Below are positions 1,707 through 20,492 of a stretch of 38,724 nucleotides of DNA, in pieces. The position numbers and the translations under genes were made by a program. Where the stretch lies: assembly GCA_030613575.1 (NCBI GenBank), contig JAUWLP010000002.1, positions 1 to 38,724 on the forward strand, given 5' to 3'. The notes below the pieces were generated by a model that did not search any database, was not told the origin of the DNA, and saw only the letters and a program-made list of their open reading frames with translations. This stretch comes from Desulfobacteraceae bacterium (GTDB lineage Bacteria > Desulfobacterota > Desulfobacteria > Desulfobacterales > UBA11574). Position 1 is the stretch's first letter, and each line of letters opens with the position of its first letter.

Positions 1707-2693
1707 ATGATGCAAATTAAAAGATTTTTCAGATTGAGTTCCATTGTTGTAGTTGTACTTTTTATTTTGAATGGATCAGGTTTTGCGGCTGAAAAGGTGA
1801 GTAAAGTTATTCTCACAAGCCCTTTCTCACCCCTTGCCATGCCCATGGCCTATATCGTTGAAAACAATCTGCTTAAAAATGTGGCTAAAGATGTTGAACT
1901 GGTCATATGGAACACGCCGGACCAGTTAAGGGCCATGATAACGAAAGGCCAGGCGCATTTTGTTTCCATCCCCAGTAATGTTGCAAGCATCTTTTACAAT
2001 AAAGGTGTGCCGCTCAATCTGGTAAGGATCTCAATCTGGGGGGTATTTTATGTTATCAGCAGTGATACTTCTGTTAAATCCCTGTATGACCTGAAAGGTC
2101 AGGAGATCTATATCCCCTTTCGCGGGGACCAGCCCGATCTTATGTTTCAGACTGTGTGCCGGGCCCAGGGGCTGGATCCGTTTAAGGATTTTCATATACA
2201 GTATGTGAGCTCGCCCCTTGATATTACCATGAGCCTTTTGGCAGGCAAGATAAATAATGCATTTATGATAGAGCCGGGAGCTGCCATGGCCATTATGAAG
2301 GCAAAAAGGAAAGGGATGACGTTTAAGAGGGTCATCGATATTCAAAAAGAATGGGGCAGGGCAACAGGAGGGAGTCCGAGGTTCCCCAATGCCGGGGTTG
2401 TGGCCCTTCCTAATGTGCTGAAAAGCCCTGCGGTTGTGGATGCATTTCTGAAAGCCTATGATGCAGGCGTAAAATGGACCAACAAGAATCCCGGAGATGC
2501 CGCAATCCTGGCGGCGAAACATGTAAAAGGAGTAAATGCCGCGGCCTTTGAAGACGCATTAAAATATACGATTTTTGAATCTGTAAGCGGAAGGGATTCC
2601 AGAAAGGCGCTTGAAGTGATGTTCTCCAAATTCATGAAGCTGAACCCCAAATCTGTTGGCGGTAAGCTCCCTGATAAAGGGTTTTATTATTAG
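1707..2693 (+). CDS. ABC transporter substrate-binding protein, NMT1/THI5-like (NitT/TauT family), secreted (copy 1)
   Basis: AAAGGAG RBS lies 7-8 nt before ATG 1707; the track's TTG at 1653 is rejected. It has a signal peptide (MMQIKRFFRLSSIVVVVLFILNGSGFA). It is paralogous to 9776-10759, e.g. the shared C-terminus NPKSVGGKLPD. Confidence 0.85.
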   Translation: MMQIKRFFRLSSIVVVVLFILNGSGFAAEKVSKVILTSPFSPLAMPMAYIVENNLLKNVAKDVELVIWNTPDQLRAMITKGQAHFVSIPSNVASIFYNKGVPLNLVRISIWGVFYVISSDTSVKSLYDLKGQEIYIPFRGDQPDLMFQTVCRAQGLDPFKDFHIQYVSSPLDITMSLLAGKINNAFMIEPGAAMAIMKAKRKGMTFKRVIDIQKEWGRATGGSPRFPNAGVVALPNVLKSPAVVDAFLKAYDAGVKWTNKNPGDAAILAAKHVKGVNAAAFEDALKYTIFESVSGRDSRKALEVMFSKFMKLNPKSVGGKLPDKGFYY

Positions 2694-2706
2694 AATCGGC
2701 ATATCA

Positions 2707-3471
2707 ATGCCTGCCGTGAACTTACTAAATACCAAGACCCGTTATGGTCTTATGGGTGTATGCCTTTTTTTCTTGGCCTGGCAGGCGTTATCCACCATCT
2801 TTCATGAGATTATCATAGCTTCTCCAGCCGACACCCTTCTCAGCCTGATTGAGATGGTTCAGACGGTGGATTTCTGGAAGAATGTCGGAATCACCATTGG
2901 AAGATTCGGGTTGAGTCTCTTGTTTGGCAGCCTGGTTGGGTTTGTGCTGGGACTGGTAGCCGGTCTGAATAAAAAAATGAGATGGCTGTTTGAGCCCTTC
3001 CGCTGGTCCCTTATGACGATGCCCCCCGTTGTTCTTGTGGTGGTGAGCATGATCTGGTTCGGCATGGGAAGCATTCAGACCATCTTTGTCACCGCGCTTT
3101 TAATCATCCCCATTATATATGTAAATACCATTGAGGGGATAGAGGCGGTGGACGCAAGTATTCTGGAGATGGGAAGGGTCTACAAGGCCAATTCCCGGAT
3201 GCTTTTAAAAGAGATTTATCTTCCGGGAATCGGTGGGCCGGTACTTGCCGGTCTCACTCTTTCCGCAGGCCTGGGCATTAGAATAGTTGTTTTAGCGGAA
3301 CTTCTCGGGGCTTACAGCGGCATAGGGTATGAATTTTCTCTTGCAAGGACGAATCTGGACACGCCCGCTCTTTTTGCCTGGATCATGGTCTGCCTTTTTC
3401 TCGGTGGATTTGTTGATTTAGGTATCCTGAACCCCATAAGGAACCATATTATGAGATGGAAAGCAGAATGA
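2707..3471 (+). CDS. ABC transporter permease, NitT/TauT family (copy 1)
   Basis: Polytopic hydrophobic protein that aligns along its length with 10759-11541 (FEPFRWSLMTMPPVVLVVVSMIWFGMGS vs LEPFRWIMLSIPPVVVVVLAMLWFGMGS). ATG 2707 was chosen by alignment with the paralog N-terminus; the RBS is weak. Confidence 0.8.
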   Translation: MPAVNLLNTKTRYGLMGVCLFFLAWQALSTIFHEIIIASPADTLLSLIEMVQTVDFWKNVGITIGRFGLSLLFGSLVGFVLGLVAGLNKKMRWLFEPFRWSLMTMPPVVLVVVSMIWFGMGSIQTIFVTALLIIPIIYVNTIEGIEAVDASILEMGRVYKANSRMLLKEIYLPGIGGPVLAGLTLSAGLGIRIVVLAELLGAYSGIGYEFSLARTNLDTPALFAWIMVCLFLGGFVDLGILNPIRNHIMRWKAE

Positions 3472-4157
3472 TTGAGTTTGTAAGTGTATACAAGGCCTTT
3501 AACGGAAGACCAGTATTCAATCAAACGTCATTTCGCGTTCAGAAAAATGAGGTTGTTGGCTTGTTAGGGCGATCCGGAGTTGGCAAATCCACCATACTCA
3601 GGATGATCAGCGGCCTTACCAGCCCTGACTCCGGAACCGTGAAGGTTAACAGTTCAAGGATCGGATATATCTTCCAGGAACCCCGTTTAATTCCCTGGAA
3701 AACGGCGCGGGAAAACATATGTTTTGGTTTAAAAGCAATGGGGGTTAACTCTAAAGATGCAAAAGACATTGCCCTGGAATATATCGAGAAACTGGATTTA
3801 AAAGGCTTTGAAAATCATTATCCCAACCAGTTGAGTGGAGGAATGAGCCAAAGGGTGTCCATAGGCAGGGCCTTTGCGATTGGTCCTGATATTCTTCTTA
3901 TGGATGAACCTTTCAGCGCCCTTGACCTCGGGCTAAAAGATGCCCTGCTTGGAATCGTTCAAGAGATGCTGGCCCATCATCAATCCATGACCGTGCTTTA
4001 TGTCTCACACGATCCCGAAGAAGTTTCAAGGCTGGCAAAGCGGTTTTTGCTCTTAATCGACGGTGGTGTCATTCAGGAGTTTTCGCCAGGCCCGGACAGA
4101 TCATTTAAAAGAATGTTGCGTAAAAGATTTCGCAATAGAAATTTTAAGAACAGGTAA
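3468..4157 (+). CDS. ABC transporter ATP-binding protein (copy 1)
   Basis: ATGA start/stop overlap with the permease at 3468-3471. Motifs: Walker A GRSGVGKST, signature LSGGMSQRV, Walker B LLMDEPFSALD, H-loop VSHD. Confidence 0.9.
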   Translation: MIEFVSVYKAFNGRPVFNQTSFRVQKNEVVGLLGRSGVGKSTILRMISGLTSPDSGTVKVNSSRIGYIFQEPRLIPWKTARENICFGLKAMGVNSKDAKDIALEYIEKLDLKGFENHYPNQLSGGMSQRVSIGRAFAIGPDILLMDEPFSALDLGLKDALLGIVQEMLAHHQSMTVLYVSHDPEEVSRLAKRFLLLIDGGVIQEFSPGPDRSFKRMLRKRFRNRNFKNR

Positions 4158-4320
4158 CCGTTCATGGGTTCACGGTTCAGGGGTTCAGGGTTAGACTGAT
4201 GAAGGAAGGATTCGATTCTTACAATACATCAAACGAGCTTGCACTGAAGTTAAAAGTAAAAAGATGAAAATCGTGAAGTAATTAACCTCTGAACCGTGAA
4301 CCTTTGAACCGTGAACGGTT
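4156..4320. repeat. Inverted pair of 38-nt GTTCA-pentamer arrays flanking an 89-nt spacer
   Basis: Left arm is AACCGTTCATGGGTTCACGGTTCAGGGGTTCAGGGTTA (4156-4193). Right arm is TAACCTCTGAACCGTGAACCTTTGAACCGTGAACGGTT (4283-4320). Each arm has four GTTCA/TGAAC units separated by 2-3 nt. The element lies between the ATPase stop and the GTPase RBS. Confidence 0.6.
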
Positions 4321-4339
4321 TTGAGAACAGGAGGCAGAT

Positions 4340-5050
4340 ATGAAATTCATAACAGTGGCAGGTCCCCCTTCCTCTGGGAAGACCCTTGTGATAATCCATC
4401 TTATCAGGCTTTTGAAGGATGATTATTTAAAGGTGGTTGTGGGCAAGATTGACTGCCATGAAACAGCAGACGGAACACTCTTTAAGGAAAGGCTGAGGAT
4501 ACCGGTAGTAGTCGGGCGAAGTGATTATGTGTGCCCTGATCACTATGGTGTAGTGAATGCGGAAGAGATATTTAAATTTGGTGAATCACATGATGCGGAC
4601 ATAACTATCGTGGAAACTGCCGGCCTTTGTCACAGATGTGCACCGGCCATTATAGGCTGTATGGCTATCGCTGTTGTCGATAATGTCAGCGGCATTGATA
4701 CACCCAGAAAGATAGGTCCCATGCTTACAACAGCCGATGTGGTTGTAATAACCAAAGGGGATATGGTGTCCCAGGCAGAGCGGGAAGTTTTCAGAAGTAA
4801 TGTGCTGGAAGTTAATCCGGATGCAAAGACGGTTGAGCTAAACGGCCTGACAGGGATGGGTTCGCTTAACCTTAAACGAGTGGTACTGGATGCGCCGGAT
4901 ATAGATACCCTCACGGGCATGGAACTCAGACACGATATGCCTGCTGCCGTGTGTTCATACTGTGAAGGGGAAACTAAGATCGGTTCGGATTATCAAATGG
5001 GCAATATCATAAAAATGGATGTTAAAGAGGTTGAAAATGGATATCAATGA
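4340..5050 (+). CDS. G3E-family P-loop GTPase, HypB/UreG-like putative metallochaperone (copy 1)
   Basis: AGGAGG RBS precedes the start. Motifs: Walker A GPPSSGKT, G3E-type ExxG (VETAGL), NKxD-like ITKGD. Cys/His motifs are conserved with the paralog 7999-8682: IDC, CPDH, AGLCHRCAP, CSYCEGE. Confidence 0.75.
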   Translation: MKFITVAGPPSSGKTLVIIHLIRLLKDDYLKVVVGKIDCHETADGTLFKERLRIPVVVGRSDYVCPDHYGVVNAEEIFKFGESHDADITIVETAGLCHRCAPAIIGCMAIAVVDNVSGIDTPRKIGPMLTTADVVVITKGDMVSQAEREVFRSNVLEVNPDAKTVELNGLTGMGSLNLKRVVLDAPDIDTLTGMELRHDMPAAVCSYCEGETKIGSDYQMGNIIKMDVKEVENGYQ

Positions 5051-5828
5051 AATAAAAATTGTATCCGGCACTGATAAAAACGGCAATTCTGAATCCGTAG
5101 AAGAATTAACAATCAGAAAAGGAGATATTTTAGTCTTAGCCGGTCCTACAGGTTCAGGGAAAAGCCTGCTCTTATCTGACATAGAGCAACTGGCCAACGG
5201 TGATTCCCCATCCGGAAGGAGGGTGCTTGTTGACAATAAGGTCATGGACCCTTTCAGTATGCGAATAACCGCATGTCTATCACAGAACATGCATTTTGTG
5301 ATGGATCTTGATGTGGGCAGTTTTATAGGTCTACATGCTAAAAGCAGGAAAATTGAGACTAACAATACGGTAGAAAAGGTCCTGAAACAGGCAAATGACC
5401 TGGCAGGAGAACCTTTATCAGCAGATATGCATCTTGCGTCATTAAGTGGTGGGCAGTCAAGGGCCCTCATGATATCTGATGCCGCCCTTATCAGTAACGC
5501 GCCTGTGGTATTGATAGATGAGATTGAGAATGCCGGAATCAATAAAACCATGGGTATTCAGTTGCTTTCCACAGAGGGCAAGATGGTCTTAATTGCCACC
5601 CATGATCCCACCTTAATGCTTACTGCACAAAAGAGAATCATCATGAAGAACGGAGCCATGTTCAGGCTTATTCAATCGGATGACGTCGAGCGGAAGCACC
5701 TAAAATATTTTCTTGAAATAGACAGGGTCCTTGAAGGCTTCAGACACAGCTTGAGACATGGGAACAGGCTGGATGAAGAGACTTTAAAGAGATTAGTTGA
5801 ATTGGAGGGAGCTAATCATGAACAGTAA
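5037..5828 (+). CDS. Stand-alone ABC-type ATPase with no transmembrane partner domain (copy 1)
   Basis: AGAGG RBS before ATG 5037, which overlaps the GTPase stop by 14 nt. Motifs: Walker A GPTGSGKS, Q-loop LSQNMHF, signature LSGGQSRAL, Walker B VVLIDEIENAG, H-loop IATHDP. Confidence 0.8.
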   Translation: MDINEIKIVSGTDKNGNSESVEELTIRKGDILVLAGPTGSGKSLLLSDIEQLANGDSPSGRRVLVDNKVMDPFSMRITACLSQNMHFVMDLDVGSFIGLHAKSRKIETNNTVEKVLKQANDLAGEPLSADMHLASLSGGQSRALMISDAALISNAPVVLIDEIENAGINKTMGIQLLSTEGKMVLIATHDPTLMLTAQKRIIMKNGAMFRLIQSDDVERKHLKYFLEIDRVLEGFRHSLRHGNRLDEETLKRLVELEGANHEQ

Positions 5829-6690
5829 AAACAAAGTGTATATTTCCGTTCCGGTTAACATTGCCAGGAATATAACTATGGGCATAAAGGAAATCTGTCC
5901 GGATTCTGAGGTTTTTTCATCTTCTAAGAAATATTATGCCGATGATCTGGTATTTCTGGAAAACATAAAGGCAGGTAAATTAGAGGAAGTGCCGGATATC
6001 ATCGTCACAATCCGCCCAGAGATATTATGGGAGAAAAACTACCTGATTGAATCAGGATTCTTTGACAGCCAATACAGGTATAAGGTGGATAGTTTTATCG
6101 AATCTAAAGGCTTTTTAGATGAAAAGTGGATCTTAAAACCTGTCTTTATAATGCCGCTTATCATTTTTTTTAACAAAGGTGTCAAAAATCCGCCGGAGTC
6201 ATGGGAATCCCTCATGAAAGCCCGCTTTAAGGGAAAGATTCTCTGTACAAATGAAAACACTCCTCCCGCTTCTCTTTTCAGGCAATTTTATACCCATCAT
6301 TTTGGAGATGAAGGAAAGGATTTTGTGGATAACAGTGTTAATTACAGGGGGCTGCCCATAGACGTGAATATTGCGGTTGGAAAAGGGGAGTATGACATCG
6401 GAATTATGCCCATATCATTTGCTAAATTTTCAAGAGACAACAGCGCCGCTTTTTGCTGGCCACCTGAGGGCGCCCTTCCCCTTATGCAGGTGATGATAAT
6501 GAAAAATGGCTTTAGCGATGATTCCATGAAAGCAGCCGATTTTTTAATTTCAGAAAATGTGCAGCAGGTATTCAGCAAGAATGCAGGCTTTATACCGGTA
6601 ATCCCGAATGTTGCGCCGCCAGAAGAGTTCAAAAAAAACAATATGAACCTGTTATGGAAAGGCTGGGACTCCTTTATTGATATGGCGTAA
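5818..6690 (+). CDS. Signal-less protein tentatively of the type-2 periplasmic-binding-protein fold (copy 1)
   Basis: GGAGGGAG RBS before ATG 5818, with an 11-nt overlap with the upstream ATPase. There is no signal peptide. The C-terminal two thirds align by eye with 6750-7982 (WPPEGALPLMQVMIM vs WPEDGAIVSPIYML; LWKGWDSF vs QWIGWEFL). The CDS call is confident; the fold assignment is tentative. Confidence 0.55.
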   Translation: MNSKNKVYISVPVNIARNITMGIKEICPDSEVFSSSKKYYADDLVFLENIKAGKLEEVPDIIVTIRPEILWEKNYLIESGFFDSQYRYKVDSFIESKGFLDEKWILKPVFIMPLIIFFNKGVKNPPESWESLMKARFKGKILCTNENTPPASLFRQFYTHHFGDEGKDFVDNSVNYRGLPIDVNIAVGKGEYDIGIMPISFAKFSRDNSAAFCWPPEGALPLMQVMIMKNGFSDDSMKAADFLISENVQQVFSKNAGFIPVIPNVAPPEEFKKNNMNLLWKGWDSFIDMA

Positions 6691-6704
6691 CTACCTATGT
6701 TGTC

Positions 6705-6732
6705 AGGTTCAAAGTTCACGGTTCAGGGGTTA
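6705..6732. repeat. Single GTTCA-pentamer array sharing an identical 18-mer with 4168-4185
   Basis: Sequence is AGGTTCAAAGTTCACGGTTCAGGGGTTA. GTTCACGGTTCAGGGGTT at 6714-6731 equals 4168-4185 in the same orientation. It lies immediately upstream of the RBS of the 6750 gene. Confidence 0.55.
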
Positions 6733-6749
6733 AAGGAAAGGAGATAAAA

Positions 6750-7982
6750 ATGATTGAGGTGACTATGACTATTCGTTCGATCATCGAGCAGTACCCGGAA
6801 ACACGGGCTGTGTTTATTGCGAATGGACTCGATGATCTGGTCGACAAAAGAAATCTTGAAAAAGTCGGTGCTTTCCTGACCATTGAGTCCGCACTGAAGA
6901 TGAAGGAGAAGGATCTTGTGGCGTTTATGAATATGCTCTCAGAGCAAATTAGTTCAAACCACGATCGTATCGATATAACACTTGCGGAAGAAAAAAATGA
7001 GCAATTGGATGTAATCGGTCTTTTGCCGGTTTCGGTGCGTTTGCAGGTTTTGGAGACATTCGAAGCTCTTCGAGTTCGATTGCAGAAGGAAGAAGGCCTT
7101 TCTTTAGCCGGAAGATTCGCCGCAGCCCAGGAAGGCACTGACTGGGTTGCTGAGGCTTACGGCCAGGTTGAGGAGCCCCGAATGCTACCGGATATCTGTT
7201 TTTCAGCCGGTTTCGATTTCTTCTTTGCAAAGCCATTTACCGATCGGTTCATCAAATCAGGTGTTTTTAGAAAGCTTATGCCATGGACTGAAAATGAAGA
7301 TTTCCAGGGTCTCGGACTTCAGGATCCAAAAAGTAGATACTGTATTATAAGTGTTGTTCCAGCAGTATTTGTTGTTGACGAGCCAGCGCTTGAGGGTCGG
7401 TCTGTACCGCGAACCTGGGAAGATCTGCTTGGTAGTAGTTATGAAAGATCAATTGCAATGCCCGAGCGCAGTCTGGACATCCCAAGATCAATTCTGCTCA
7501 CCTTATATGCACGTTTTGGTGAAGAAGGAGTACGGTCTCTTGGCCGAAACACTGCAAGCCAGCTGCATCCTGCCCAGATGGTCAAGCAGATAAAATCAGC
7601 TGTAAAAGGTCGTCCAGCTGTGTCGGTGATGCCTTACTTTTTTTCAAGGACAGTAAACGAGGCAGAGGGAATAACTGTGATCTGGCCGGAAGACGGTGCC
7701 ATTGTCAGCCCAATCTACATGCTTGCAAAGTCTGATCCCGGGTTTTGCAGGGCCGACCCGCGTGTGGTCGAACGCGCTGCCGAACTTTTTTCAAGCCAGC
7801 AGATGGGAACAATTTTCACTAAAGGATACTTTCCTTCGCTTCATCCAAAGGTAAACAATGCCTTGCCGGATGAGGCCTCGTTTCAATGGATCGGCTGGGA
7901 ATTCTTAGAGGGGATGGATTCCGGGATTATACTCCCGCAGGTCTACAACCTGTTTGATGAAGAAATAGCCAGGACGGAATAG
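6750..7982 (+). CDS. Signal-less protein with a DUF1858-like N-terminal domain and a binding-protein-like body (copy 2)
   Basis: AAAGGAG RBS. The N-terminus IRSIIEQYPETRAVFIANGL...LTIESALKMKEKDL resembles the DUF1858/ScdA_N-type helical domain but lacks Cys. The remainder is paralogous to 5818-6690. No signal peptide. Confidence 0.55.
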   Translation: MIEVTMTIRSIIEQYPETRAVFIANGLDDLVDKRNLEKVGAFLTIESALKMKEKDLVAFMNMLSEQISSNHDRIDITLAEEKNEQLDVIGLLPVSVRLQVLETFEALRVRLQKEEGLSLAGRFAAAQEGTDWVAEAYGQVEEPRMLPDICFSAGFDFFFAKPFTDRFIKSGVFRKLMPWTENEDFQGLGLQDPKSRYCIISVVPAVFVVDEPALEGRSVPRTWEDLLGSSYERSIAMPERSLDIPRSILLTLYARFGEEGVRSLGRNTASQLHPAQMVKQIKSAVKGRPAVSVMPYFFSRTVNEAEGITVIWPEDGAIVSPIYMLAKSDPGFCRADPRVVERAAELFSSQQMGTIFTKGYFPSLHPKVNNALPDEASFQWIGWEFLEGMDSGIILPQVYNLFDEEIARTE

Positions 7983-7998
7983 CAAGGAGCAACAGAAA

Positions 7999-8682
7999 AT
8001 GAGACTGATAACGGTTTCCGGCCCGCCCTCTTCGGGCAAAACAGCGGTTATTTGCAGGGTGATCGAGGCCCTGCGCCAGCAAGCGGTCAAGGTAGGCGTG
8101 GTGAAATTTGACTGTTTGTCCACGGAAGACGATGAGCGGTATAAAAGCATGGGTGTTTTGGTGCGTAAGGGACTCTCAGGTGCGCTTTGCCCGGACCATT
8201 TTTTTGTAAGCAATATTGAGGCCTGTTTTCATTGGGGTCTTGATGAAGGTATCGATATCCTGATCAGCGAAAGTGCAGGGTTGTGCAACCGGTGCTCCCC
8301 ACACATCAAGGATGTCATGTCTGTTTGTGTCATCGACAATCTGAGTGGCCAGAACACCCCGAAAAAGATTGGTCCAATGCTAAAATCTGCTGATATCGTG
8401 GTCATTACAAAGGGGGATATTGTAAGCCAGGCCGAGCGGGAGGTCTTTTCATTTCGCGTAAAGAACGTTAATCCCAGATCAACTACCATGCATGTCAACG
8501 GGCTTACCGGCCAGGGCGCTGAAGAACTGGCCAGGTTGTTCGCAGAAAGTTCGGATGTAGGAGGACTTGGTGAAAGGCAGTTGCGATTTGCCATGCCAAC
8601 CGCGCTGTGTTCTTACTGCCTGGGCGAAAAACGTATCGGAGAGGAATACCAAAAGGGAAATATCCGGAAAATGGATATTTGA
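7999..8682 (+). CDS. G3E-family P-loop GTPase, HypB/UreG-like putative metallochaperone (copy 2)
   Basis: AAGGAG RBS. Motifs: GPPSSGKT, ExxG (SESAGL), ITKGD. It carries the same Cys/His set as copy 1 (FDC, CPDH, AGLCNRCSP, CSYCLGE). Confidence 0.75.
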   Translation: MRLITVSGPPSSGKTAVICRVIEALRQQAVKVGVVKFDCLSTEDDERYKSMGVLVRKGLSGALCPDHFFVSNIEACFHWGLDEGIDILISESAGLCNRCSPHIKDVMSVCVIDNLSGQNTPKKIGPMLKSADIVVITKGDIVSQAEREVFSFRVKNVNPRSTTMHVNGLTGQGAEELARLFAESSDVGGLGERQLRFAMPTALCSYCLGEKRIGEEYQKGNIRKMDI

Positions 8683-8692
8683 GGTAAGAATA

Positions 8693-9733
8693 TTGGAAGC
8701 AATTCGGTTTAATAACAACATTATCCGTCGTGAGGAAATCCTGAACATGGATACAGGCTCACTTCGGCAACGCCTTCCGGCCATAAACGATTTTTTTTCC
8801 TCCTTCGGGCTGACGGCGCCTGAAGATGGAACGACCATCAGTCATTTTTTACTTGAGCTTGATGCGGAGATCCTCAACGATATCGGTATGGAACGTGAGG
8901 CAATAAATGAGGTTTTTTTAGACTTTATAGAAGGAATGCTGGAAATACAAAAAACCTCTGGTTTCAAACTTGTCGAACTGACAATCATTGGGGGTCGTAA
9001 TAAGGACGGTAAGTCGGAAGAATTGAACCTTGAATTGCGTCCGAGTCAGATTATTTGCCTTGTGGGCCATACCGGTTCAGGAAAGAGCAGATTGCTTGCC
9101 GACATTGAATGGATGGCCAGGGGGGACACGCCAACTGGGCGGAGGATTTTGATCAACGGTGATATTCCTCCATCCTCATGGCGCCATTCCCATGAGCACC
9201 GGTTGGTGGCCCAGTTAACACAAAATATGAACTTTGTCATGGACGTTGCTGTAGATGAGTTTGTCAGGTTGCATGCGGAAAGCAGACTTGTCCAAAATGT
9301 GGAGGCAAAGACAAATCAGATTCTTTTAAAGGCAAACGATCTTGCAGGTGAGCCTTTTGCACCGGATACACCGGTGACCAGCCTGTCCGGTGGGCAGTCC
9401 CGTGCCTTGATGATTGCGGATATAGCCCTTTTGAGCGCCTCCCCCATTGTCCTCATTGACGAGATAGAAAATGCAGGCATCGACCGGAAGCGCGCCCTTG
9501 AATTACTTATAGACGAGGAGAAAATCGTTCTTATCGCCACCCATGATCCCATCCTGGCCTTAATGGGTGAAAAACGATTGATCCTGCGTAACGGCGGGGT
9601 TCACAAAATTATCAATACAACCCCTGTGGAAAGAAGAAATTTATCTAAGATTGAGGAATTGGATAAAAACTTTCTTGGTTTACGCAATCGTATACGAAAT
9701 GGAGAACTTATCGACTTTGAAATCGGATTGTAA
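8693..9733 (+). CDS. Stand-alone ABC-type ATPase with an N-terminal extension of about 100 aa (copy 2)
   Basis: Motifs: Walker A GHTGSGKS, LTQNMNF, LSGGQSRAL, IVLIDEIENAG, IATHDP. The start is uncertain. TTG 8693 has GAGG 8 nt upstream; the alternative is ATG 8747. The track start at 8567 overlaps the GTPase by 116 nt and is rejected. Confidence 0.7.
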   Translation: MEAIRFNNNIIRREEILNMDTGSLRQRLPAINDFFSSFGLTAPEDGTTISHFLLELDAEILNDIGMEREAINEVFLDFIEGMLEIQKTSGFKLVELTIIGGRNKDGKSEELNLELRPSQIICLVGHTGSGKSRLLADIEWMARGDTPTGRRILINGDIPPSSWRHSHEHRLVAQLTQNMNFVMDVAVDEFVRLHAESRLVQNVEAKTNQILLKANDLAGEPFAPDTPVTSLSGGQSRALMIADIALLSASPIVLIDEIENAGIDRKRALELLIDEEKIVLIATHDPILALMGEKRLILRNGGVHKIINTTPVERRNLSKIEELDKNFLGLRNRIRNGELIDFEIGL

Positions 9734-9775
9734 ATCGTATCTTTATTGAAAAAATTTTAGAAAGGAGAAAATGTC

Positions 9776-10759
9776 ATGAAAAAAATTTATCTAATTGTTG
9801 CTTTTCTACTCATGTTTTCCGTTCCTGTTTTGGCGCAGTCCAAAATGGAGAAACTGGTTTTAGCGGGCCCGAAATCGAGTGTGACTCACCCAATGGCGTA
9901 CATAATCGAGGCCGGCCTTATCAAAGATGTAGCCAAAGAGGTAAAGCTCATTATCTGGGATAATCCTGATCAGCTTCGCTCGCTTGTTGCCGGCGGTCAG
10001 GCCCATTTCTCAGCCGTGCCCAGTTACGTGGCGGCGAATTTTTATAATAAAGGGGTCCATGTCCGGCTATTGAATATATCGGCATGGGGCATTCTGTGGA
10101 TTGTCTCTTCCGATCCTGACGTCAAAACCATTGCCGATCTGAAAGGCGAAGAAATCGTCCTGACTTATCGGAGGGATATGCCTGATCTGGTACTTTCCAG
10201 CCTGGCACTGAAACAGGGCCTTGATCCGACCAGGGATTTTAAATTGCGTTATCTGCCGAACTTTCCGGCCGTATCCCAGGAAGTTGTAAGCGGCAGGGCC
10301 AAACACGCCCTTTTAGCCGAACCCCTTGTCTCGGTGTCCCTTCTAAAATCTTCCAGGATGAAAGGCAAAGCTCCGAAACTCTATCGGGCTGTTGATATTC
10401 AAAAAGAGTGGGGGCGGGTCTATAATACCGATTCTAAAATCCCCCAGGCCGGCATATGCGCCATGCCGGAGGTAGCTAAACAGCCTGAAACGGTAAAGGC
10501 GTTTCAGAATGCTTACAGGGACGCTATCGACTGGTGCAACAAGAACCCGAAAGAGGCCGGCAAGATCGTGGCTAAGTATATTCCAGGCCTAAAACCTGGT
10601 CCGGTTGCCACCGCGCTGAAAAACGCCGGCCTCGAATTCATCTCCGCCCATGACGCAAAGCCGGAGATCGAGCAATTTTATAATGTGCTAAAGTCTCTTA
10701 ACCCCGCAAAGATTGGCGGGAAACTGCCAGATGATTACTTTTACTGGAGTGACCGCTGA
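9776..10759 (+). CDS. ABC transporter substrate-binding protein, NMT1/THI5-like, secreted (copy 2)
   Basis: AAAGGAG RBS and signal peptide MKKIYLIVAFLLMFSVPVLA. Paralogous to 1707-2693. Confidence 0.85.
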   Translation: MKKIYLIVAFLLMFSVPVLAQSKMEKLVLAGPKSSVTHPMAYIIEAGLIKDVAKEVKLIIWDNPDQLRSLVAGGQAHFSAVPSYVAANFYNKGVHVRLLNISAWGILWIVSSDPDVKTIADLKGEEIVLTYRRDMPDLVLSSLALKQGLDPTRDFKLRYLPNFPAVSQEVVSGRAKHALLAEPLVSVSLLKSSRMKGKAPKLYRAVDIQKEWGRVYNTDSKIPQAGICAMPEVAKQPETVKAFQNAYRDAIDWCNKNPKEAGKIVAKYIPGLKPGPVATALKNAGLEFISAHDAKPEIEQFYNVLKSLNPAKIGGKLPDDYFYWSDR

Positions 10760-11541
10760 TGTCTTTATTCCATTGGCTGCGGAAAAAGCTGCTTTTTTTG
10801 ACCCGCGCAAATCTGTTTATCGCCATTGGTTTTATGCTGCTGCTGGCAGGATGGCAGGTGCTTTCCTTTTATACGCACGAAATTTTACTCGCATCTCCGG
10901 CCCAGGCGGCTTGCGCGCTATGGGGAATAATCGGAACTTCATATTTTAACGAGAATTTTCTTATAACGTTATGGCGTCTTTTCTTCGGCATCGTATCGGG
11001 CGGGCTAATTGGGTTTGTTCTCGGGACCGCGGCAGGGCTTAATGAAGATATAAAGAATATTTTAGAACCTTTTCGCTGGATAATGTTGAGCATCCCGCCG
11101 GTGGTTGTGGTAGTGCTGGCCATGCTCTGGTTCGGCATGGGATCTAAAATGGTGGCCTTTATCACATCCGTACTGGTAGCCCCGATTGTGTATGTCAACA
11201 CCGTCAAGGGGATTGAAATGGTTGATGAAAAACTGGTGGAAATGGCGCGTCTGTACAAATTCGGTTTTGTGATGCGCATAAAAGACGTCTATACACCGGC
11301 GATCATCGGGCCGCTTGGCGCGGCCATGGTGCTGATAACCTGCATGGGCGCACGAGTGGTTATACTGGCGGAACTTATGGGCGCCAACGACGGTATCGGA
11401 TACGCCCTGGGCGTGACCCGGTCCAATCTGGACGTTCCCCAGCTTTTCGCATGGGTGCTGGTCACTCTCGGCATTGTGTCGGTGTTTGAGTTTATACTTC
11501 TTCGTCCCGTAGAAAAACATTTCATACGGTGGAAGTTATGA
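10759..11541 (+). CDS. ABC transporter permease, NitT/TauT family (copy 2)
   Basis: TGATG stop/start overlap at 10757-10761. Polytopic protein paralogous to 2707-3471. Confidence 0.85.
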   Translation: MSLFHWLRKKLLFLTRANLFIAIGFMLLLAGWQVLSFYTHEILLASPAQAACALWGIIGTSYFNENFLITLWRLFFGIVSGGLIGFVLGTAAGLNEDIKNILEPFRWIMLSIPPVVVVVLAMLWFGMGSKMVAFITSVLVAPIVYVNTVKGIEMVDEKLVEMARLYKFGFVMRIKDVYTPAIIGPLGAAMVLITCMGARVVILAELMGANDGIGYALGVTRSNLDVPQLFAWVLVTLGIVSVFEFILLRPVEKHFIRWKL

Positions 11542-12239
11542 GTCCGGTGATTTCTTTTGAAAACGTAGTGAAAGAATACGGCGGGCGGAAGGTGATTTCC
11601 GGTCTTTCATTTCAGATTCACAGCCGGGAGGTTGTAGGGTTGCTGGGACAAAGCGGCATGGGAAAGACCACCATTTTAAAAATTATCGCCGGCCTTGAAA
11701 TGCCAAGTGACGGAGATATCAAGGTGATCGCAGAACGTGTCGGTTATGTCTTCCAGGAACCCAGGCTCTTACCCTGGAGGACAGCGCTGGAAAACGTGAT
11801 GCTGCCCATGATAGCGCTTGGGATGAATAAAAAACAGGCCGGAGAAAAGGCCAATCACTTTCTTGGTGAAATGGAACTTTCTGAATTCACCCATTATTAT
11901 CCGTCGCAATTGTCCGGCGGGATGATGCAAAGGGTTTCCCTTGCCAGGGCCTTTGCCACTGAACCTGAAGTGTTGCTTCTCGATGAACCGTTCAGTGCCC
12001 TGGATCTTCAAATGAAAGATGCGATTTTGTCAATGATTGAAGAACGGCTTTTGGTTCAGCCAATGACAGTTTTGTATGTCTCTCATTCACAGGAAGAGGT
12101 AATGCGGATTTCAAACAGGATTTTCATGATGTCTTCCGGGAGCAAACTGGATGAATTGCCGATACAGCACTGCCGGGCGTTCAGGGCTGGATGTAAAAAA
12201 GCGTTTTTAAAATGGACAAAACAAATCGGATCAAATTAG
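11538..12239 (+). CDS. ABC transporter ATP-binding protein (copy 2)
   Basis: ATGA overlap at 11538-11541, the same junction geometry as copy 1. Motifs: GQSGMGKTT, LSGGMMQRV, LLLDEPFSALD, VSHS. Confidence 0.9.
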   Translation: MSPVISFENVVKEYGGRKVISGLSFQIHSREVVGLLGQSGMGKTTILKIIAGLEMPSDGDIKVIAERVGYVFQEPRLLPWRTALENVMLPMIALGMNKKQAGEKANHFLGEMELSEFTHYYPSQLSGGMMQRVSLARAFATEPEVLLLDEPFSALDLQMKDAILSMIEERLLVQPMTVLYVSHSQEEVMRISNRIFMMSSGSKLDELPIQHCRAFRAGCKKAFLKWTKQIGSN

Positions 12240-12630: not shown

Positions 12631-13635
12631 ATGACATTATCAAGATGGTATAAGTTGACGCCGGCTGCGCCGGGAAGGTTTTTTCTTATTCTGCTTGCAT
12701 TTATTTTTCTGGCTTTCCCTGCAAATGCCGAGCAAAAAGGTAAAAAAATAAAGGGACCAAAGCCTGTGGGCGCTGTAAATTCCAGCAATGGCAGCGTATT
12801 TCCAAAAGGTAAATACGGAGCTATCTTCAAATATGTTTATTTCAAACAGGACCAGCTTTACGACGGCAGCGACGAGGTAGATTTCACCCGGCCTCGAAAG
12901 GGACAGAAACCCGGGAAAAAATGCTACGAAAGATCAATGGAAAAATATCAGCTTACCTTGCGCACTGGTATTTTTGAAAATTTCGATGCCCGCCTGATCA
13001 TCCCTTATTTCGATAAGGAAATGAAGAGAAAGTCCTTTAAGGAAGATTTTACTGATAGCAATTCCGGGATCGGTGATATCAAGTTAATCAGCCGGTACCG
13101 GATTTTGTCCCAGAAAGAAAAGGACCCGTTCAACCTTGCCTTCGGAGCGGGGTTGAAAATGCCCACTGGAAAATCAGATGATAAGGAAAACGGAAAGACA
13201 CTGCCCGGGTTTTTACAGACTGGCTCAGGTTCATGGGACCCCATCATTGAGATAGGCGCCCACAAGGTCATGGGACGGCATTGGCTGTCCAGCTATTTGA
13301 TGTATCTGATGACCACCGAAGGCGAACTGGGGGACCGAGATTTTGAGAGACCCGACGTCTTTAAATACAACTTTGCCTATGCCTATGCGCTGACTAATCT
13401 GTTTGATCTGGGGCTTGAGTTAAATGGCGTGATCAAGGGAAAGGCGGAATTGGACGGGAAAAAACTGGATAATACCGGAGGGCACACCGTTTATCTTACT
13501 CCCGGCGTGCATTTTAAATTTTATAAAGGGATGCATTTTGACGTGTGTGTCCCGATTCCTGTTTACCGCGATCTGAACGGCACGCAATTGTCCGAGGATT
13601 ATCGCATAGTGGCCAAACTCGCTATGACATTTTAG
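12631..13635 (+). CDS. Outer-membrane beta-barrel protein (MetA-pathway/phenol-degradation-like transporter family)
   Basis: AAGGAGG RBS. Signal peptide ends in FPANA-EQ. It has the GIGDIKL motif, an alternating beta-strand pattern and a C-terminal Phe (AKLAMTF). Family name is from memory. Confidence 0.65.
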   Translation: MTLSRWYKLTPAAPGRFFLILLAFIFLAFPANAEQKGKKIKGPKPVGAVNSSNGSVFPKGKYGAIFKYVYFKQDQLYDGSDEVDFTRPRKGQKPGKKCYERSMEKYQLTLRTGIFENFDARLIIPYFDKEMKRKSFKEDFTDSNSGIGDIKLISRYRILSQKEKDPFNLAFGAGLKMPTGKSDDKENGKTLPGFLQTGSGSWDPIIEIGAHKVMGRHWLSSYLMYLMTTEGELGDRDFERPDVFKYNFAYAYALTNLFDLGLELNGVIKGKAELDGKKLDNTGGHTVYLTPGVHFKFYKGMHFDVCVPIPVYRDLNGTQLSEDYRIVAKLAMTF

Positions 13636-13666: not shown

Positions 13667-14662
13667 ATGATGAATAAACAATTTATTAAACAAACAGTTT
13701 CAAACGGGATAGTTGCTTTAACCGTGATTATTCTTGGCGCTTTTTTTATGTTTACCGAGCCTGCGAATGCTCAAAAAGGAATGAAGGCGCCACCGCCGGA
13801 AAAAATTAAAGCCATCATAATTGGTGATCGGGTGGTCGATATTGCATACAATCTTGGCGTTCTTCCTGAAGCAATGTCAGTGCGCGGTTGCATGTGGCCA
13901 TTAGCCAAACAGCTTAAGACCGCCAGCCAGATACTGGGTTGCCCCAAGTGTATAGTTGATAAAAAACCAACAATAGTTCCTGATACGGCAAAAAAACGAG
14001 GCATTAAGCGAATCATAATCGAAAAGCATCCTAATTTTTGTATTTACAAACCCAAGGTTAAGCCGGCCAACGTAGTTCCCCTGTTGGAGGGAAAAGGCCT
14101 GACCATCGAGTATGTGGACTTCTCACAGGGCATTGAATCGGCCATCCGTCAAACGGCCAGATTACTTAACCGGGAATCCATGGCAAAGCCTCTAATCGCG
14201 CGTTACAAAAAGGCAATGGCTAAGGCAAAATCAATTTTGCCAAAGGTCAAGCTGGGTAAACAGGTGCTTATCATCAATGGGACGTTCCAGCGCTCCACAG
14301 ACAAGTCATTTCTCAGAATCGAGGCAGCAGGAGGGTATTCAGACCAGTATTTGCTCGAACCACTCGGCTGTATCAATGTAGGTGATGTTCTTAAAACGGA
14401 AAACAAAAAGGTAAACAAAGGCCACTTTTCAATCAGAAAGCTGGACGCCCTGGCAAAGGCAAAACCTGATGTCATTGTGATGACCGGAAATCCCTTTGCG
14501 GTGCAAAAGGCTCTTAGTGCAGCAGTTAAAAAAAACCCGGCTTTGGCCCAGGTGCCGGCCATCAAAGACCTGGCCATATATAGTCTGCCCTTCTATGCAG
14601 ATTCAAGTGTAATTGAGTATCCTGCAATCTTAAGGCAGTGGGCTGCAGCCCTGAACGATTGA
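13667..14662 (+). CDS. Class III (BtuF/FhuD-like) periplasmic binding protein, Cys-rich
   Basis: AAAGGAGG RBS and a signal peptide ending in PANA-QK. Layout is typical of Peripla_BP_2 proteins (IIGDRVVDIAYNLGV..., KPDVIVMTGNP..., AIYSLP). It has the unusual conserved Cys motifs RGC, GCPKC, NFC and GCI. A paralog lies at 34394-35374 on the minus strand. Confidence 0.7.
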   Translation: MMNKQFIKQTVSNGIVALTVIILGAFFMFTEPANAQKGMKAPPPEKIKAIIIGDRVVDIAYNLGVLPEAMSVRGCMWPLAKQLKTASQILGCPKCIVDKKPTIVPDTAKKRGIKRIIIEKHPNFCIYKPKVKPANVVPLLEGKGLTIEYVDFSQGIESAIRQTARLLNRESMAKPLIARYKKAMAKAKSILPKVKLGKQVLIINGTFQRSTDKSFLRIEAAGGYSDQYLLEPLGCINVGDVLKTENKKVNKGHFSIRKLDALAKAKPDVIVMTGNPFAVQKALSAAVKKNPALAQVPAIKDLAIYSLPFYADSSVIEYPAILRQWAAALND

Positions 14663-14968: not shown

Positions 14969-15766
14969 ATGGAAGAACAATTAAGCGGTATTCCGGAAAC
15001 CTTGCTTATACCTCTCTGGGCAAGAGCTGTTGAAACAAAACGCTCTACACCCATCATTAATGATATTAGAGCAGTGGAGATGGTAGAGCGCATTGAGTAT
15101 GACTTTTCAAAATTTGACAAGGCATGGATGTCGCAGGTTGGCGTTGCCATTAGAACCAAACTCTTAGATGAGGCGACAATGGCCTTTATTAACAAATACC
15201 CTGATTCGGTAATTATTAATATTGGAGCTGGTCTTGATACACGCTTTTTTAGGGTGGATAACGATAGAATCCGTTGGTATGAATTAGACTTGCCTGAATC
15301 AATTCACATCAGAAAAAAATTCTTCAATGAAACTGATAGATACAGAATGATTGCTAAATCTGTGTTTGATTATTCCTGGATTAAGCAGATTGATACCTTT
15401 ACCGATTCAGTTTTAATCATTGCAGAAGGCGTATTGATGTACTTTGAAGAAGATGATATTAAAAGCCTGATGGCCAGGATGGTTGTTGCATTCCCACATG
15501 CAGAGATGCTTTTTGAAATGATGACACCTACATTAGCAAAAAGGAGTAAACAGCATGATGCTGTTAGTAAAACTGATGCTGAGTTCAGATGGGGAATTAC
15601 CAGTGGAAAAGAGATGGAAGCCTTAAGCACTAAAATCAAGTATATTGAAGAATGGAATTACTTTGATTATCATCAGGATAGATGGCGTTGGGTGCGCTGG
15701 TTGGCTTTGATTCCAGCGTTTAAGAATCGCTTTAATAATAGAATTGTTCATTTATGCTTTATCTGA
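14969..15766 (+). CDS. Class I SAM-dependent O-methyltransferase (leucine carboxyl methyltransferase/TcmP-like family)
   Basis: N-terminal IPETLLIPLWARA and the SAM-binding motif INIGAGLDTRFFR are typical of this family. Confidence 0.75.
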   Translation: MEEQLSGIPETLLIPLWARAVETKRSTPIINDIRAVEMVERIEYDFSKFDKAWMSQVGVAIRTKLLDEATMAFINKYPDSVIINIGAGLDTRFFRVDNDRIRWYELDLPESIHIRKKFFNETDRYRMIAKSVFDYSWIKQIDTFTDSVLIIAEGVLMYFEEDDIKSLMARMVVAFPHAEMLFEMMTPTLAKRSKQHDAVSKTDAEFRWGITSGKEMEALSTKIKYIEEWNYFDYHQDRWRWVRWLALIPAFKNRFNNRIVHLCFI

Positions 15767-16032
15767 AGTATCTATCGCAATCAAAAGCCGGCTATAGCTT
15801 TCAAGAAAAAGTTTTTGGTGTAATCTGACATACGATCTTTATAGAGGTTATGTCGCTATTGCTGAGAGAAACTTGAAACTGGAAACTCGATAACCCCAGA
15901 AAATGTCTATGTGTCTCAAAGTTTCAAGTTTCAGTCGTACCGAACGCCTTATGCTTTATATAATGAAGGAAATAATAACTCCAAAATTTTTTTTCTATAT
16001 GTGTATATTAACAGCTTTGGCACGGGCTCATT

Positions 16033-16596
16033 ATGCCTAATTTTTTTACCAATCCATTTTTATGGATAAGCGTCTATTTAATCGGATTTATCATAGCGAT
16101 AATAATACTCTGTCTACCACGACTATTTACCGGGGTCGAAAAGAAATTACCGAAAGTGCTTTTAAAGGTATATATCCTGTCTGTATTTATAGCCCCTCCA
16201 ATGGCTTTACCGTTTACTAAAGGGCCTAAAATAGCGATTCCAGCATATGTTTCACTGAGTTTAGGGATATTTCTGCTGGTGATGAATTTTGTTATCAAGA
16301 TGTTGGCTCAAAAGGAAATTGGTGCGCTTCCGGGCATAAAAAGAAAAGCGAAACTGATTACAACAGGCATTTACGGAATTGTGAGAAATCCTTTATATAT
16401 GAGTAATGGTTTGTTAGCAATCGGAATGGCTGTTCTTTTAAAATCAATGTATGCCCTTATTTTTTCGGTTCCTTATTCTCTCTCTTATCTGCTCATTATA
16501 TATTTTGAAGAAAAGGATCTTATGAAAAAATATGGAAACGAATATCAGGAGTATATGAAGAAGGTTCCTTACAGAATTATTCCCAGGCTATTTTAA
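16033..16596 (+). CDS. Isoprenylcysteine carboxyl / phospholipid methyltransferase-family membrane protein
   Basis: Multi-pass membrane protein with GIYGIVRNPLYMSNGLLAIG and the C-terminal EEKDLMKKYGNEYQEYMKKVP block. Confidence 0.75.
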   Translation: MPNFFTNPFLWISVYLIGFIIAIIILCLPRLFTGVEKKLPKVLLKVYILSVFIAPPMALPFTKGPKIAIPAYVSLSLGIFLLVMNFVIKMLAQKEIGALPGIKRKAKLITTGIYGIVRNPLYMSNGLLAIGMAVLLKSMYALIFSVPYSLSYLLIIYFEEKDLMKKYGNEYQEYMKKVPYRIIPRLF

Positions 16597-16741
16597 TCGC
16601 TAATTTTCCTTTTTCATCCCCTCCCAAACAGTCCGTCCGGGCTCACTCCGAGGCCCGTCCTTTGTCAAAGATCCTGATTATATCGGGGAAGGAGAAGGGT
16701 AGGGTGAGGGGCTAAAATGATCGCTATGATTCAAACATATC

Positions 16742-16927
16742 TTGATAGAATGGAATCATCTGATCAGAGTTGAGCATGAAACTGATAAAAGGTGCAAATA
16801 TACTGATCAGGTTGAAATTAAGGCAGGTCTGTTTACTCCAGTTGTGTGGGGATATGCACATGTTTTTTACCGGTACAGGCATTATCGATGGAAAAAGTTG
16901 ATCCGAAAAATTTTGTATCCTTTTTGA
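16742..16927 (+). pseudogene. C-terminal remnant of an SRPBCC (COG4276-like ligand-binding) protein
   Basis: WNHLIRVEHETDKRCKYTDQVEI...VFYRYRHYRWKKLI matches the WHHxHxF...D.V.Y...F.YRH...L tail of that family. An in-frame stop lies just upstream and no N-terminal half is present. Confidence 0.45.
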
Positions 16928-17081: not shown

Positions 17082-17114
17082 CTACAAAAATGTTCGAAAG
17101 TCCTAATTTATGTC

Positions 17115-19585: not shown

Positions 19586-19659
19586 AGTATAGTATTTACT
19601 CACATTTTGGAGTGAGCCCTTAGCACGTCTAATATTAAAATCCAATAGAAGGTTTAATA

Positions 19660-20471: not shown

Positions 20472-20492
20472 ACCCTTCCAAGCTCCAAGTTT

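Follow-up and report, generated by a model that had tools for sequence, protein, structure and literature searches.

A conserved triad of G3E GTPase, soluble ABC ATPase and cytoplasmic binding protein: a possible new metallochaperone system, linked to importers in a Desulfobacteraceae bacterium

The DNA analysed here, referred to as the window, is a stretch of 38,724 nucleotides from a Desulfobacteraceae bacterium (GenBank assembly GCA_030613575.1, contig JAUWLP010000002.1, positions 1 to 38,724). At 1707–12239 it carries a block of twelve intact, closely packed open reading frames (ORFs), all on the + strand, in which two ATP-binding cassette (ABC) importers enclose two sets of three genes. 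The three genes of each set, or triad, code for a G3E GTPase, a soluble ABC ATPase and a protein folded like a substrate-binding protein (SBP) but located in the cytoplasm. The triad is widely conserved in anaerobic bacteria. We propose, tentatively and at a little under even confidence, that it is a G3E metallochaperone system not described before, whose task is to load or repair a metal centre, and that it is regulated by nitric oxide (NO) stress in most lineages and fed by dedicated uptake in this bacterium.

G3E GTPases are the main nucleotide-dependent metallochaperones. The GTPases of the block, GTP1 (4340–5050) and GTP2 (7999–8682), match the cobW profile at 42–47.5 bits, relative to a gathering score of 20.7 (E 1e-10 for GTP1). 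The G3E hallmarks GPPSSGKT, E(T/S)AG and TKGD are present in both and are invariant in an alignment of 14 homologues, as are the residues C39, C64-P-D-H67, C96xxC99 and C204xxC207 of GTP2, that is, six cysteines and H67. GTP1 reads CPDH, ETAGLCHRC and TKGD, with CSYCEGE at the C-terminus. HMMER aligns C64-P65 with the CPH nickel motif of UreG and C64/H67 with the CH motif of HypB, and C96 stands after ExxG. A Cys-His site thus lies between Walker A and Walker B and a cysteine follows Walker B, as in G3E metal sites. An earlier note, made from the letters of this DNA, had assigned these proteins to G3E, and the presence of a HypB/UreG-type metal site bears this out. The AlphaFold2 (AF2) model of GTP2 (pLDDT 75.5) has HypB and then UreG as its nearest structures in Foldseek (TMt 0.63–0.69, 20–24% identity), and UreG is also its top match by sequence in the PDB (1e-7). 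The tail of the model (residues 199–227), which includes CxxC, has low pLDDT, as expected for a flexible tail that might shuttle metal.

The scores of named G3E families are not reached. Against the HypB equivalog TIGR00073, GTP1 and GTP2 score 38.9 and 60.1 bits (cut-off 121.2), and against UreG TIGR00101 the GTPases score 35.7 and 38.4 bits (cut-off 204.2). The features of COG0523/CobW proteins are also lacking: GCxCC is absent from the alignment, CobW_C has no match and the proteins are 227–236 aa long. Because the GTPase scores under the HypB and UreG cut-offs and has neither the motif nor the C-terminal domain of COG0523, we class it by sequence as a G3E protein outside the four groups described to date, which are HypB, UreG, MeaB and COG0523 (PMC11672702, a 2024 review). 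Relatives of GTP2 comprise 6410 proteins at E ≤ 1e-10, named just 'GTP-binding protein' or 'hypothetical'. Hydrogenase and hyp families are not among the 25 most frequent Pfam families in either neighbour census (80 loci), and hydrogenase and hyp genes were not found among the window ORFs scanned.

In a survey of one genome per species, the GTPase profile matches at least 591 species genomes. The best matches, from the 80 best genomes, define loci L001–L081. Here the three genes follow one another on a single strand as binding protein–GTPase–ABC ATPase, an arrangement we call type A, in 79 of 81 loci and in more than ten phyla, with GTPase identity of 66–74% across the phyla surveyed. The co-localisation of the three genes, read by the earlier note from the window alone, therefore holds in other genomes and in a fixed order. 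One exception is Acetobacterium paludosum (L046, 9009–17439), which has two GTPase-ABC pairs in the arrangement ABC-GTPase ... PBP ... GTPase-ABC, where PBP is the binding protein; in the other (L009), a binding-protein homologue was not detected upstream of the GTPase. The 80 best genomes belong to Desulfuromonadales/Geobacterales, Deferribacterales, Clostridia/Tissierellia, Fusobacteriales, Spirochaetes, Bacteroidales, Fibrobacteres, Acidobacteriota, Gemmatimonadota, Cloacimonadota and others. Host-associated genera with this triad group include Fusobacterium, Leptotrichia, Treponema and Peptostreptococcus.

A fourth gene is often present. In 48 of the 81 type A loci (for example, at 11730–11972 in L066), the next gene after that for the ABC protein encodes an 80-aa, cysteine-rich zinc-ribbon protein. 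It starts with MH(D/E/Q)GC and has invariant H2, C5, C37xxC40, C53xxC56 and C65, as well as an invariant GVTPCHA. The Pfam HypA family matches 27 of 39 members, weakly (best 2e-5).

Other gene sets accompany the triad in individual genomes. In Deferribacter desulfuricans (L001), genes for NifX-like (Nitro_FeMo-Co) proteins lie near the triad (7227–7628 and 17870–20687), together with two MinD/ParA-type ATPases with ferredoxin domains, DUF5320 and DUF134, a gene set of the metal-cluster kind. Also present in this genome, upstream of the triad, is an ArsP-thioredoxin-ArsR set. In Clostridium kluyveri (L100; CP018335.1, 8001–16984), a binding protein–GTPase–ABC triad without DUF1858 is followed by an ABC_trans_CmpB membrane protein and then by genes for a NifX-like protein, a PALP enzyme and three Oxidored_nitro (nitrogenase-like) proteins.

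The two halves of the window block are mirror images in gene order, and the earlier note took them for diverged copies of one module. SBP1 and SBP2 are 40% identical, the permeases PERM1 and PERM2 45% over 237 aa (E 1.5e-75), the importer ATPases ATP1 and ATP2 48%, the ATPase cores of the soluble ABCs1 and ABCs2 48%, and GTP1 and GTP2 51–52%. These five pairs have E values below 1e-75, far beyond chance. The cytoplasmic binding proteins PBPc1 and PBPc2 are only 23% identical (E 2e-8), so the earlier estimate of about half identity fits five pairs (40–51%) but not the sixth. In an identity matrix and tree, GTP1 is 78–86% identical to the GTPases of Desulfoplanes (L102), Vibrio (L103) and L104, which belong to what we call type B. 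GTP2 is 57–85% identical to the compared type A and other non-type-B relatives (67–85% for canonical type A), and type A and type B GTPases differ by 47–53%. Because each GTPase is closer to outside orthologues than to the other, there are two old groups and not one duplicated module; on these comparisons, we conclude that each half of the block belongs to an old orthologous group of its own. The view of diverged copies of one module is thus given up. A recent tandem duplication or rearrangement that left one copy redundant or decaying would account for the single strand, the symmetric order and the paralogous pairs, but all twelve ORFs are intact with their catalytic motifs, and for either copy there are orthologues in other organisms that are closer than the partner within the window. 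L104, too, has type A and type B side by side, in a different (divergent) orientation. We give this explanation almost no credence, and the GTPase identity matrix and tree contradict a recent duplication. Type B proteins of Vibrio sp. JC009 are 78–82% identical to those of Desulfobacterota, a similarity that suggests recent horizontal transfer.

The neighbourhood of type A points to nitrosative stress. The hcp gene, which encodes the hybrid cluster protein and was identified by NF003658 (856 bits), adjoins the triad in 23 of the 81 loci, in two layouts. It is divergent and upstream in Desulfuromonadales, and co-directional and downstream in Clostridia, Tissierellia and Cloacimonadota, where it sometimes overlaps the ABC gene or starts 25 nt past it. 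A Pfam census of 80 loci, covering two genes either side of the triad, found 20 Prismane (hcp), 8 Crp/Fnr, 5 Rrf2 and 8 YgbA_NO genes, the last being a 'nitrous oxide-stimulated promoter' family. The 14 PilZ genes in the same census reflect lineage synteny.

Operator-like sites are present upstream of many type A operons. The published HcpR consensus sequences are TTGACnnnnGTCAA for delta-proteobacteria and GTAACnnnnGTTAC for Clostridia, Bacteroides and Treponema (PMC1274295). We scanned the 350 nt upstream of the first operon gene in 79 loci for palindromes with at most one mismatch. TTGAC-N4-GTCAA was found in 25 of these loci (1.25 per kb upstream, background 0.061 per kb) and GTAAC-N4-GTTAC in 17 (0.62 per kb, background 0.036 per kb); the two palindromes are the HcpR1 and HcpR2 consensus sequences given in PMC1274295. 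Such sites are therefore about 17- to 20-fold above background, and two control palindromes occurred in 0–1 loci. Nearly all lie at −36 to −146, with a few second sites and outliers from −14 to −322, and each palindrome was found in the taxa expected for it. Counting HcpR1-, HcpR2- and FNR-type sites together, 45 of the 79 type A loci have one upstream. More than half of the site-bearing loci have no adjacent hcp, and thus the sites appear to serve the triad operon itself. We predict from these sites that the type A operon is under NO- or anaerobiosis-responsive control. The 2005 tables of the HcpR regulon do not list the triad, save for one Desulfuromonas 'ABC transporter ATPase component' with a site at −251 (PMC1274295), which may or may not be the triad operon. 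Our literature search found no report of HcpR dependence of the triad, or of its induction by NO or nitrite. The earlier note had found neither a regulator nor a client in the block. This stands for the window, but elsewhere hcp, HcpR-type Crp/Fnr genes and sites, Rrf2, YgbA_NO and NnrS associate with the triad.

The soluble ABC ATPases, ABCs1 (5037–5828; 263 aa, type B) and ABCs2 (8747–9733; type A), have the full motif set of an ABC nucleotide-binding domain, namely G(P/H)TGSGKS, LSGGQ, (V/I)VLIDE and THD. They match ABC_tran at 53–56 bits (cut-off 25; E 8e-14 and 8.5e-15), compared with 111 bits for the importer ATPase ATP1. The top PDB matches of ABCs2 by sequence are CmpC, CmpD and NrtD (1e-9 to 1e-7). 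Transmembrane (TM)-like segments number zero in ABCs1. In ABCs2 there is a single TM-like 19-mer at residue 237, which lies inside the ABC ATPase fold near LSGGQ (231–235). Genes of the ABCs2 type have a NitT/TauT-type permease nearby in only two of the 81 type A loci (L040 and L081), and the earlier description of this ATPase as membrane-less agrees with the absence of a nearby permease in most genomes.

In type A, both the binding protein and the ABC ATPase carry an N-terminal DUF1858-like domain of about 90 aa; in type B, both lack it. The N-domain of the ABC protein aligns with the DUF1858 domain of the binding protein at 92.6% probability in hhalign (E 4.6e-7), and with the threshold relaxed, 6 of 18 ABC N-termini gave a direct match to DUF1858. 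A weak similarity of DUF1858 to ScdA_N was seen in 3 of 36 pieces. In the literature, DUF1858 appears as a member of the NnrR regulon, and its fusion to SufT is known. No stand-alone DUF1858 gene turned up in the window by tblastn or with hidden Markov models (HMMs).

The binding protein of type A, PBPc2 (6750–7982), has an N-terminal DUF1858 domain (1e-9) followed by SBP_bac_6 (7e-66), of the FbpA fold. Its AF2 model (pLDDT 89) consists of the helical DUF1858 domain and a two-lobe class II SBP fold, for which the nearest structures in Foldseek are the ferric-binding proteins FbpA/FutA (E 1e-13 to 1e-12, 11–16% identity), followed by proteins that bind pyridoxal phosphate (PLP), sugar phosphates and polyamines. 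PBPc1 (5818–6690; 290 aa, type B) matches SBP_bac_6 at 6.7e-20 and has neither a signal nor DUF1858. Its family comprises only 26 clusters, always beside cobW and ABC_tran genes. SBP1 and SBP2 begin with hydrophobic signal sequences and PBPc1 and PBPc2 have none; PBPc2 opens on its folded DUF1858 domain, and no export or lipoprotein signal was recognised in either. The two proteins are thus signal-less, as the earlier note had described them. Across 41 homologues of the binding protein, H273, D315, W223, W312 and W383 are invariant, as are several Phe residues, and there is no invariant Tyr.

The importers of the window are of the NMT1 type. Importer 1 consists of the periplasmic protein SBP1 (1707–2693; NMT1 1.7e-8, Phosphonate-bd; hydrophobic N-terminus), PERM1 (2707–3471; BPD_transp_1 8.5e-20; six TM-like segments) and ATP1 (3456–4157; ABC_tran 8e-32; Walker A, LSGGM, Walker B and H-loop). 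Importer 2 consists of the periplasmic protein SBP2 (9776–10759; NMT1/Phosphonate-bd; signal sequence), PERM2 (10759–11541) and ATP2 (11529–12239). PERM2 and ATP2 were assigned by their identity to PERM1 and ATP1, by six TM-like segments in PERM2 and by Walker A, LSGGM and Walker B in ATP2; the Pfam scan covered the other ten proteins. The best NCBIfam match of PERM1 is SaoP, at 108.5 bits relative to a cut-off of 295, and SaoA gave 138.6 relative to 360. A PDB search by sequence with SBP2 gives a single match, 3hn0 (1.4e-15), whose deposited name is 'nitrate transport protein'.

Such importers are rare beside type A. Among the 81 type A loci, a permease and ATPase of the NMT1 type occur near the triad in L040 and L081 only, and an SBP in L081 only. 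In two loci with close relatives of GTP2 (L082 and L083, type A GTPases 81% and 76% identical), the order is SBP2-[PBP-GTPase-ABC]-permease; the importer ATPase comes after the permease in L083, and the L082 contig stops inside the permease gene. Type B is rare, and importer-linked in all loci long enough to show their surroundings. The order SBP-permease-ATPase-GTPase-ABC-PBP was found in metagenome contigs (L084–L097), in Desulfoplanes sp. PS50 (L102) and in L104, an outer-membrane channel or TonB-dependent receptor lies alongside, and a Crp/Fnr regulator is usual. In L102 and L104 the Crp/Fnr gene separates the SBP gene from the permease gene. Matching palindromes, TTGCGCCAGAGCAA and TTGCTCTGGCGCAA, stand at 3863 and 5922 of L104, in the intergenic regions either side of this embedded gene, and are candidate sites for its product; a palindrome of this type was not found in the window. 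In Vibrio sp. JC009 (L103; CP092107.1, 1503514–1522233), the order is GTPase-ABC-PBP with importer genes a few kb upstream, and the neighbours run importer, NnrS, outer-membrane channel, Crp/Fnr, triad and a DUF2249-DUF1858 protein. This region contains three FNR boxes, of which two are perfect and one has a single mismatch. In a more distant type B locus (L091), the triad has ExbB-ExbD-TonB on one side and a TonB-dependent receptor on the other, with SBP-permease-ATPase after the receptor. Such a set is a complete uptake route across the envelope, like those that serve for scarce metal complexes and cofactors.

A Phenol_MetA_deg outer-membrane channel also flanks the module in the window (12631–13635, +), L082 (within 1–1860), L102 (within 35–2093) and L103 (within 5340–6257). 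After the channel comes a Peripla_BP_2 gene in the window (13667–14662, +; both window genes by Pfam) and in L082, and a 337-aa gene without a Pfam match in L102. The channel and the Peripla_BP_2 gene of the window are probably associated with the block. The general module does not include the importer; importer linkage is recurrent in the lineage of the window and survives rearrangement. The idea of uptake plus cytoplasmic delivery, put forward in the earlier note, fits type B and the window lineage (L082–L097, L102–L104), but not to the general module, which has an importer in two of 81 loci.

From the composition, conservation, order, motifs, folds, neighbourhoods and operator-like sites described above, we infer metal handling, an order of hand-off and induction by NO. 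By analogy with every G3E protein that has been studied, the dimer interface of the GTPase would hold a metal ion or small metal centre, to be freed by GTP hydrolysis. The ABC ATPase would provide an ATP-driven clamp or release step through conformational change, as SufC does in Fe-S assembly, and the FbpA-fold binding protein would act as a cytoplasmic receiver or donor of the cargo. Where present, the 80-aa protein could be a HypA-like adaptor. The DUF1858 domains on two partners may be docking modules, an idea that follows from their paired gain and loss on both partners and from the occurrence of DUF1858 on a separate protein in Vibrio. In most anaerobes, the type A operon would belong to the HcpR/NO-stress response and would load or rebuild a metal centre that is damaged by, or needed during, nitrosative stress. 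In the window, cargo probably enters via the outer-membrane channel and the two NMT1-type importers and is handed to two cytoplasmic modules. It is possible, at odds we place distinctly under even, that these proteins are a fifth G3E branch that works with a membrane-less ABC ATPase and a cytoplasmic binding protein as a nucleotide-driven machine to rebuild or re-metallate metal centres of anaerobes under nitrosative stress, and that some lineages, this one included, have plumbed it to an outer-membrane channel and an ABC importer.

Several points weigh against a metallochaperone under NO control. The aligned homologues of the binding protein show no invariant tyrosine of the kind that holds Fe3+ in FbpA/FutA, and the His/Asp/Trp/Phe set of this protein would suit an organic ligand too. 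We know of no NMT1-type binding proteins that bind metals. The part given to the soluble ABC ATPase is purely what we infer, and we found no published experiment on any member of the triad. The likeness of the 80-aa protein to HypA is confined to the ribbon (18.9 bits at 67–94, relative to a TIGR00100 cut-off of 88.1), and a PDB profile search with this protein gave generic zinc fingers and did not recover HypA; these scores and this search rule it out as HypA, and we retain only the term 'HypA-like ribbon'. By tblastn and HMM search, the 80-aa partner is absent from the window and from its closest relatives. The palindromes could serve FNR-type anaerobic regulators and not NO sensors. The window lacks hcp, a Crp/Fnr gene and an HcpR-type site, and no HcpR-, FNR- or NnrR-type operator was found in its block. 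Because these and the 80-aa partner are missing, NO regulation is unproven for the window locus.

Three other explanations compete with a metallochaperone. The cargo of the module might be not a bare metal ion but a cofactor, organic or organometallic, much as cobalamin is for MeaB, with the FbpA-fold protein as the carrier. This would fit the conserved residues of the binding protein, which are Trp/Phe-rich with no Tyr cluster, and its PLP-, sugar-phosphate- and polyamine-binding structural neighbours. A TonB-dependent receptor together with an NMT1-type SBP also suggests a larger organic cargo, SaoP of the proposed organometallic SAO system is the best curated match of the permease, and methyltransferase and ArsP genes lie nearby in the window. 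However, the SaoP score of 108 relative to a cut-off of 295 means that this is not the SAO system, no enzyme of cofactor biosynthesis or cofactor dependence is consistently adjacent, and the GTPase site is of the HypB/UreG metal-ion type and not MeaB-like. We therefore regard a cofactor as unlikely.

We consider it somewhat more improbable that the triad is a dedicated factor for maturation or reactivation of the hybrid [4Fe-2S-2O] cluster of Hcp, in which the GTPase and the Cys-rich protein would insert or reinsert iron and the ABC ATPase would open the enzyme. Hcp is the commonest neighbour (23 of 81 loci, in two independent layouts), triad and hcp have operator sites in common, and DUF1858 weakly matches TIGR03980, a 'hybrid cluster protein-associated redox disulfide domain'. 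Yet 58 of the 81 loci have no hcp within about 10 kb, hcp is absent from the 38.7-kb window and from type B loci, and the C. kluyveri triad adjoins nitrogenase-like genes instead. E. coli makes active Hcp and is not known to have the triad, although no E. coli genomes were searched. Least probable of the three, by our estimate, is that the soluble ABC ATPase and the binding protein are regulatory or accessory importer subunits like NrtC/CmpC, with an anion (nitrate, nitrite or sulfonate) as the cargo and the GTPase as a regulator. A nitrogen-oxide cargo would suit the HcpR context, the triad is inserted between SBP and permease genes in L082 and L083, and the names of the PDB matches (CmpC, CmpD and NrtD for ABCs2, 3hn0 for SBP2) point the same way. 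The name of 3hn0, however, comes from structural genomics and not from an assay, and the similarity to CmpC is hardly above that to generic ABC ATPase domains (41 vs 35 bits). Moreover, each importer already has its own ATPase, no permease is near in 79 of 81 type A loci, and a G3E protein with six invariant cysteines and a histidine would be left unexplained.

Among characterised systems, the HypA/HypB system of [NiFe]-hydrogenase offers the closest parallel in the G3E GTPase itself, with its Cys-His motif and Cys after Walker B, and HypB is the best structural match. In the 48 loci with the 80-aa partner, the CxxC...CxxC ribbon and N-terminal Met-His recall HypA. In contrast to HypB, the triad GTPase has the extra invariant cysteines C39, C99 and C204xxC207, and the Hyp system has no counterpart for the soluble ABC ATPase and the SBP-fold protein; hydrogenase genes are not adjacent to the triad. 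The likeness to UreG lies in CP(D)H on the CPH nickel site, but urease and UreDEF genes are absent. With COG0523 proteins (CobW, ZigA/ZNG1, YjiA, Nha3) the GTPase shares cobW (PF02492), whereas its fold is nearer HypB/UreG. Some COG0523 genes adjoin TonB-dependent and ABC uptake genes.

The partners have parallels of their own. SufC is a cytoplasmic ABC-type ATPase without a transporter that acts in Fe-S assembly, in SufBC2D. The analogy is functional only: SufC is not in the best 25 NCBIfam matches, and SufB and SufD are not adjacent. In NrtC/CmpC of cyanobacterial NitT/TauT importers, an ABC ATPase is fused to a cytoplasmic solute-binding domain that senses substrate. These resemble the triad in having an SBP-fold domain that acts in the cell with an ABC ATPase, and in their transporter family. 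They differ in that the triad proteins are separate, have an SBP fold that is FbpA-like and not NrtA-like, and mostly occur without a permease. YtfE/RIC/ScdA and stand-alone DUF1858 proteins belong to the same nitrosative-stress regulons (PMC1274295, PMC6710368), but the triad has no hemerythrin-like di-iron domain, and its DUF1858 is just an N-terminal appendage on larger proteins. The SaoABP transporter of the selenocysteine-assisted organometallic (SAO) system is of the same NitT/TauT-like group. The SaoL, SaoE, SaoT, SaoC and SaoD genes are absent, however, and the SAO paper mentions neither CobW nor a GTPase; SAO membership is ruled out by the absence of these genes and by SaoP and SaoA scores far under the cut-offs.

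A literature search found no paper that describes the triad, and its database names are generic. We found no curated family that matches it, and no solved structure close in sequence to any of its proteins. The statement of the earlier note that it knew of no characterised system with this composition thus stands. The triad is best filed as a further G3E metallochaperone system, with two partner classes that no known member uses and a predicted place in the HcpR regulon.

If this placement is right, a further G3E group is present in at least 591 species of anaerobes, including host-associated genera, and operates with partner types unused by known metallochaperones. Its place beside hcp in an HcpR-type regulon would give a testable handle on how metal centres are restored after NO damage in strict anaerobes, most of which do not have the classic repair proteins. 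The triad may also bear on the servicing of Hcp itself. The importer-linked versions in the window could serve as a natural experiment on the hand-off of imported cargo to a cytoplasmic chaperone and, if the reading as a fifth G3E branch is true, would represent a complete supply chain from the cell exterior to the client protein.

The coordinates of the block follow from a reading of the ORFs, which confirms the twelve + strand genes and the overlaps named in the earlier note: ATGA at 3468 and 11538, TGATG at 10757, 14 nt at 5037 and 11 nt at 5818. The two ATGA overlaps arise with the alternative starts of ATP1 (3468, with PERM1) and ATP2 (11538, with PERM2). All coordinates agree with those first given, apart from the start of ABCs2, placed earlier at TTG 8693. 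The start is most likely ATG 8747, which has GAGGAA 9 nt upstream and gives an N-terminus that aligns with homologues.

Two spacers in the block contain runs of GGTTCA(N) heptads. The first (4150–4320), identified by an inverted-repeat search, includes a 36-nt imperfect inverted repeat, formed by these heptads, with arms 98 nt apart and has a predicted RNA fold of −58.9 kcal/mol (z −4.47). It is not found in relatives: at this position the genes of L084 and L089 overlap or are just 33 nt apart. The second run (6706–6732), seen in the sequence, is in the 59-nt spacer between the triads. There are 13 matches to GGTTCANGGTTCA in the window, compared with 3.5 expected. The heptad runs could be an inserted element of the repetitive extragenic palindromic (REP) kind or an operator array. 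No riboswitch or other known RNA upstream of or within the block reached the Rfam gathering score; the sole match, to a small RNA at E 0.37, is taken as chance.

Beyond the channel and Peripla_BP_2 genes, the flanks of the block at 14969–20145 and 25501–29587 encode an LCM-type and two ICMT/PEMT-type methyltransferases, FeoB and two ABC exporters. Also present in these flanks are genes for an ArsP permease with a MarR regulator and for a P-type ATPase.

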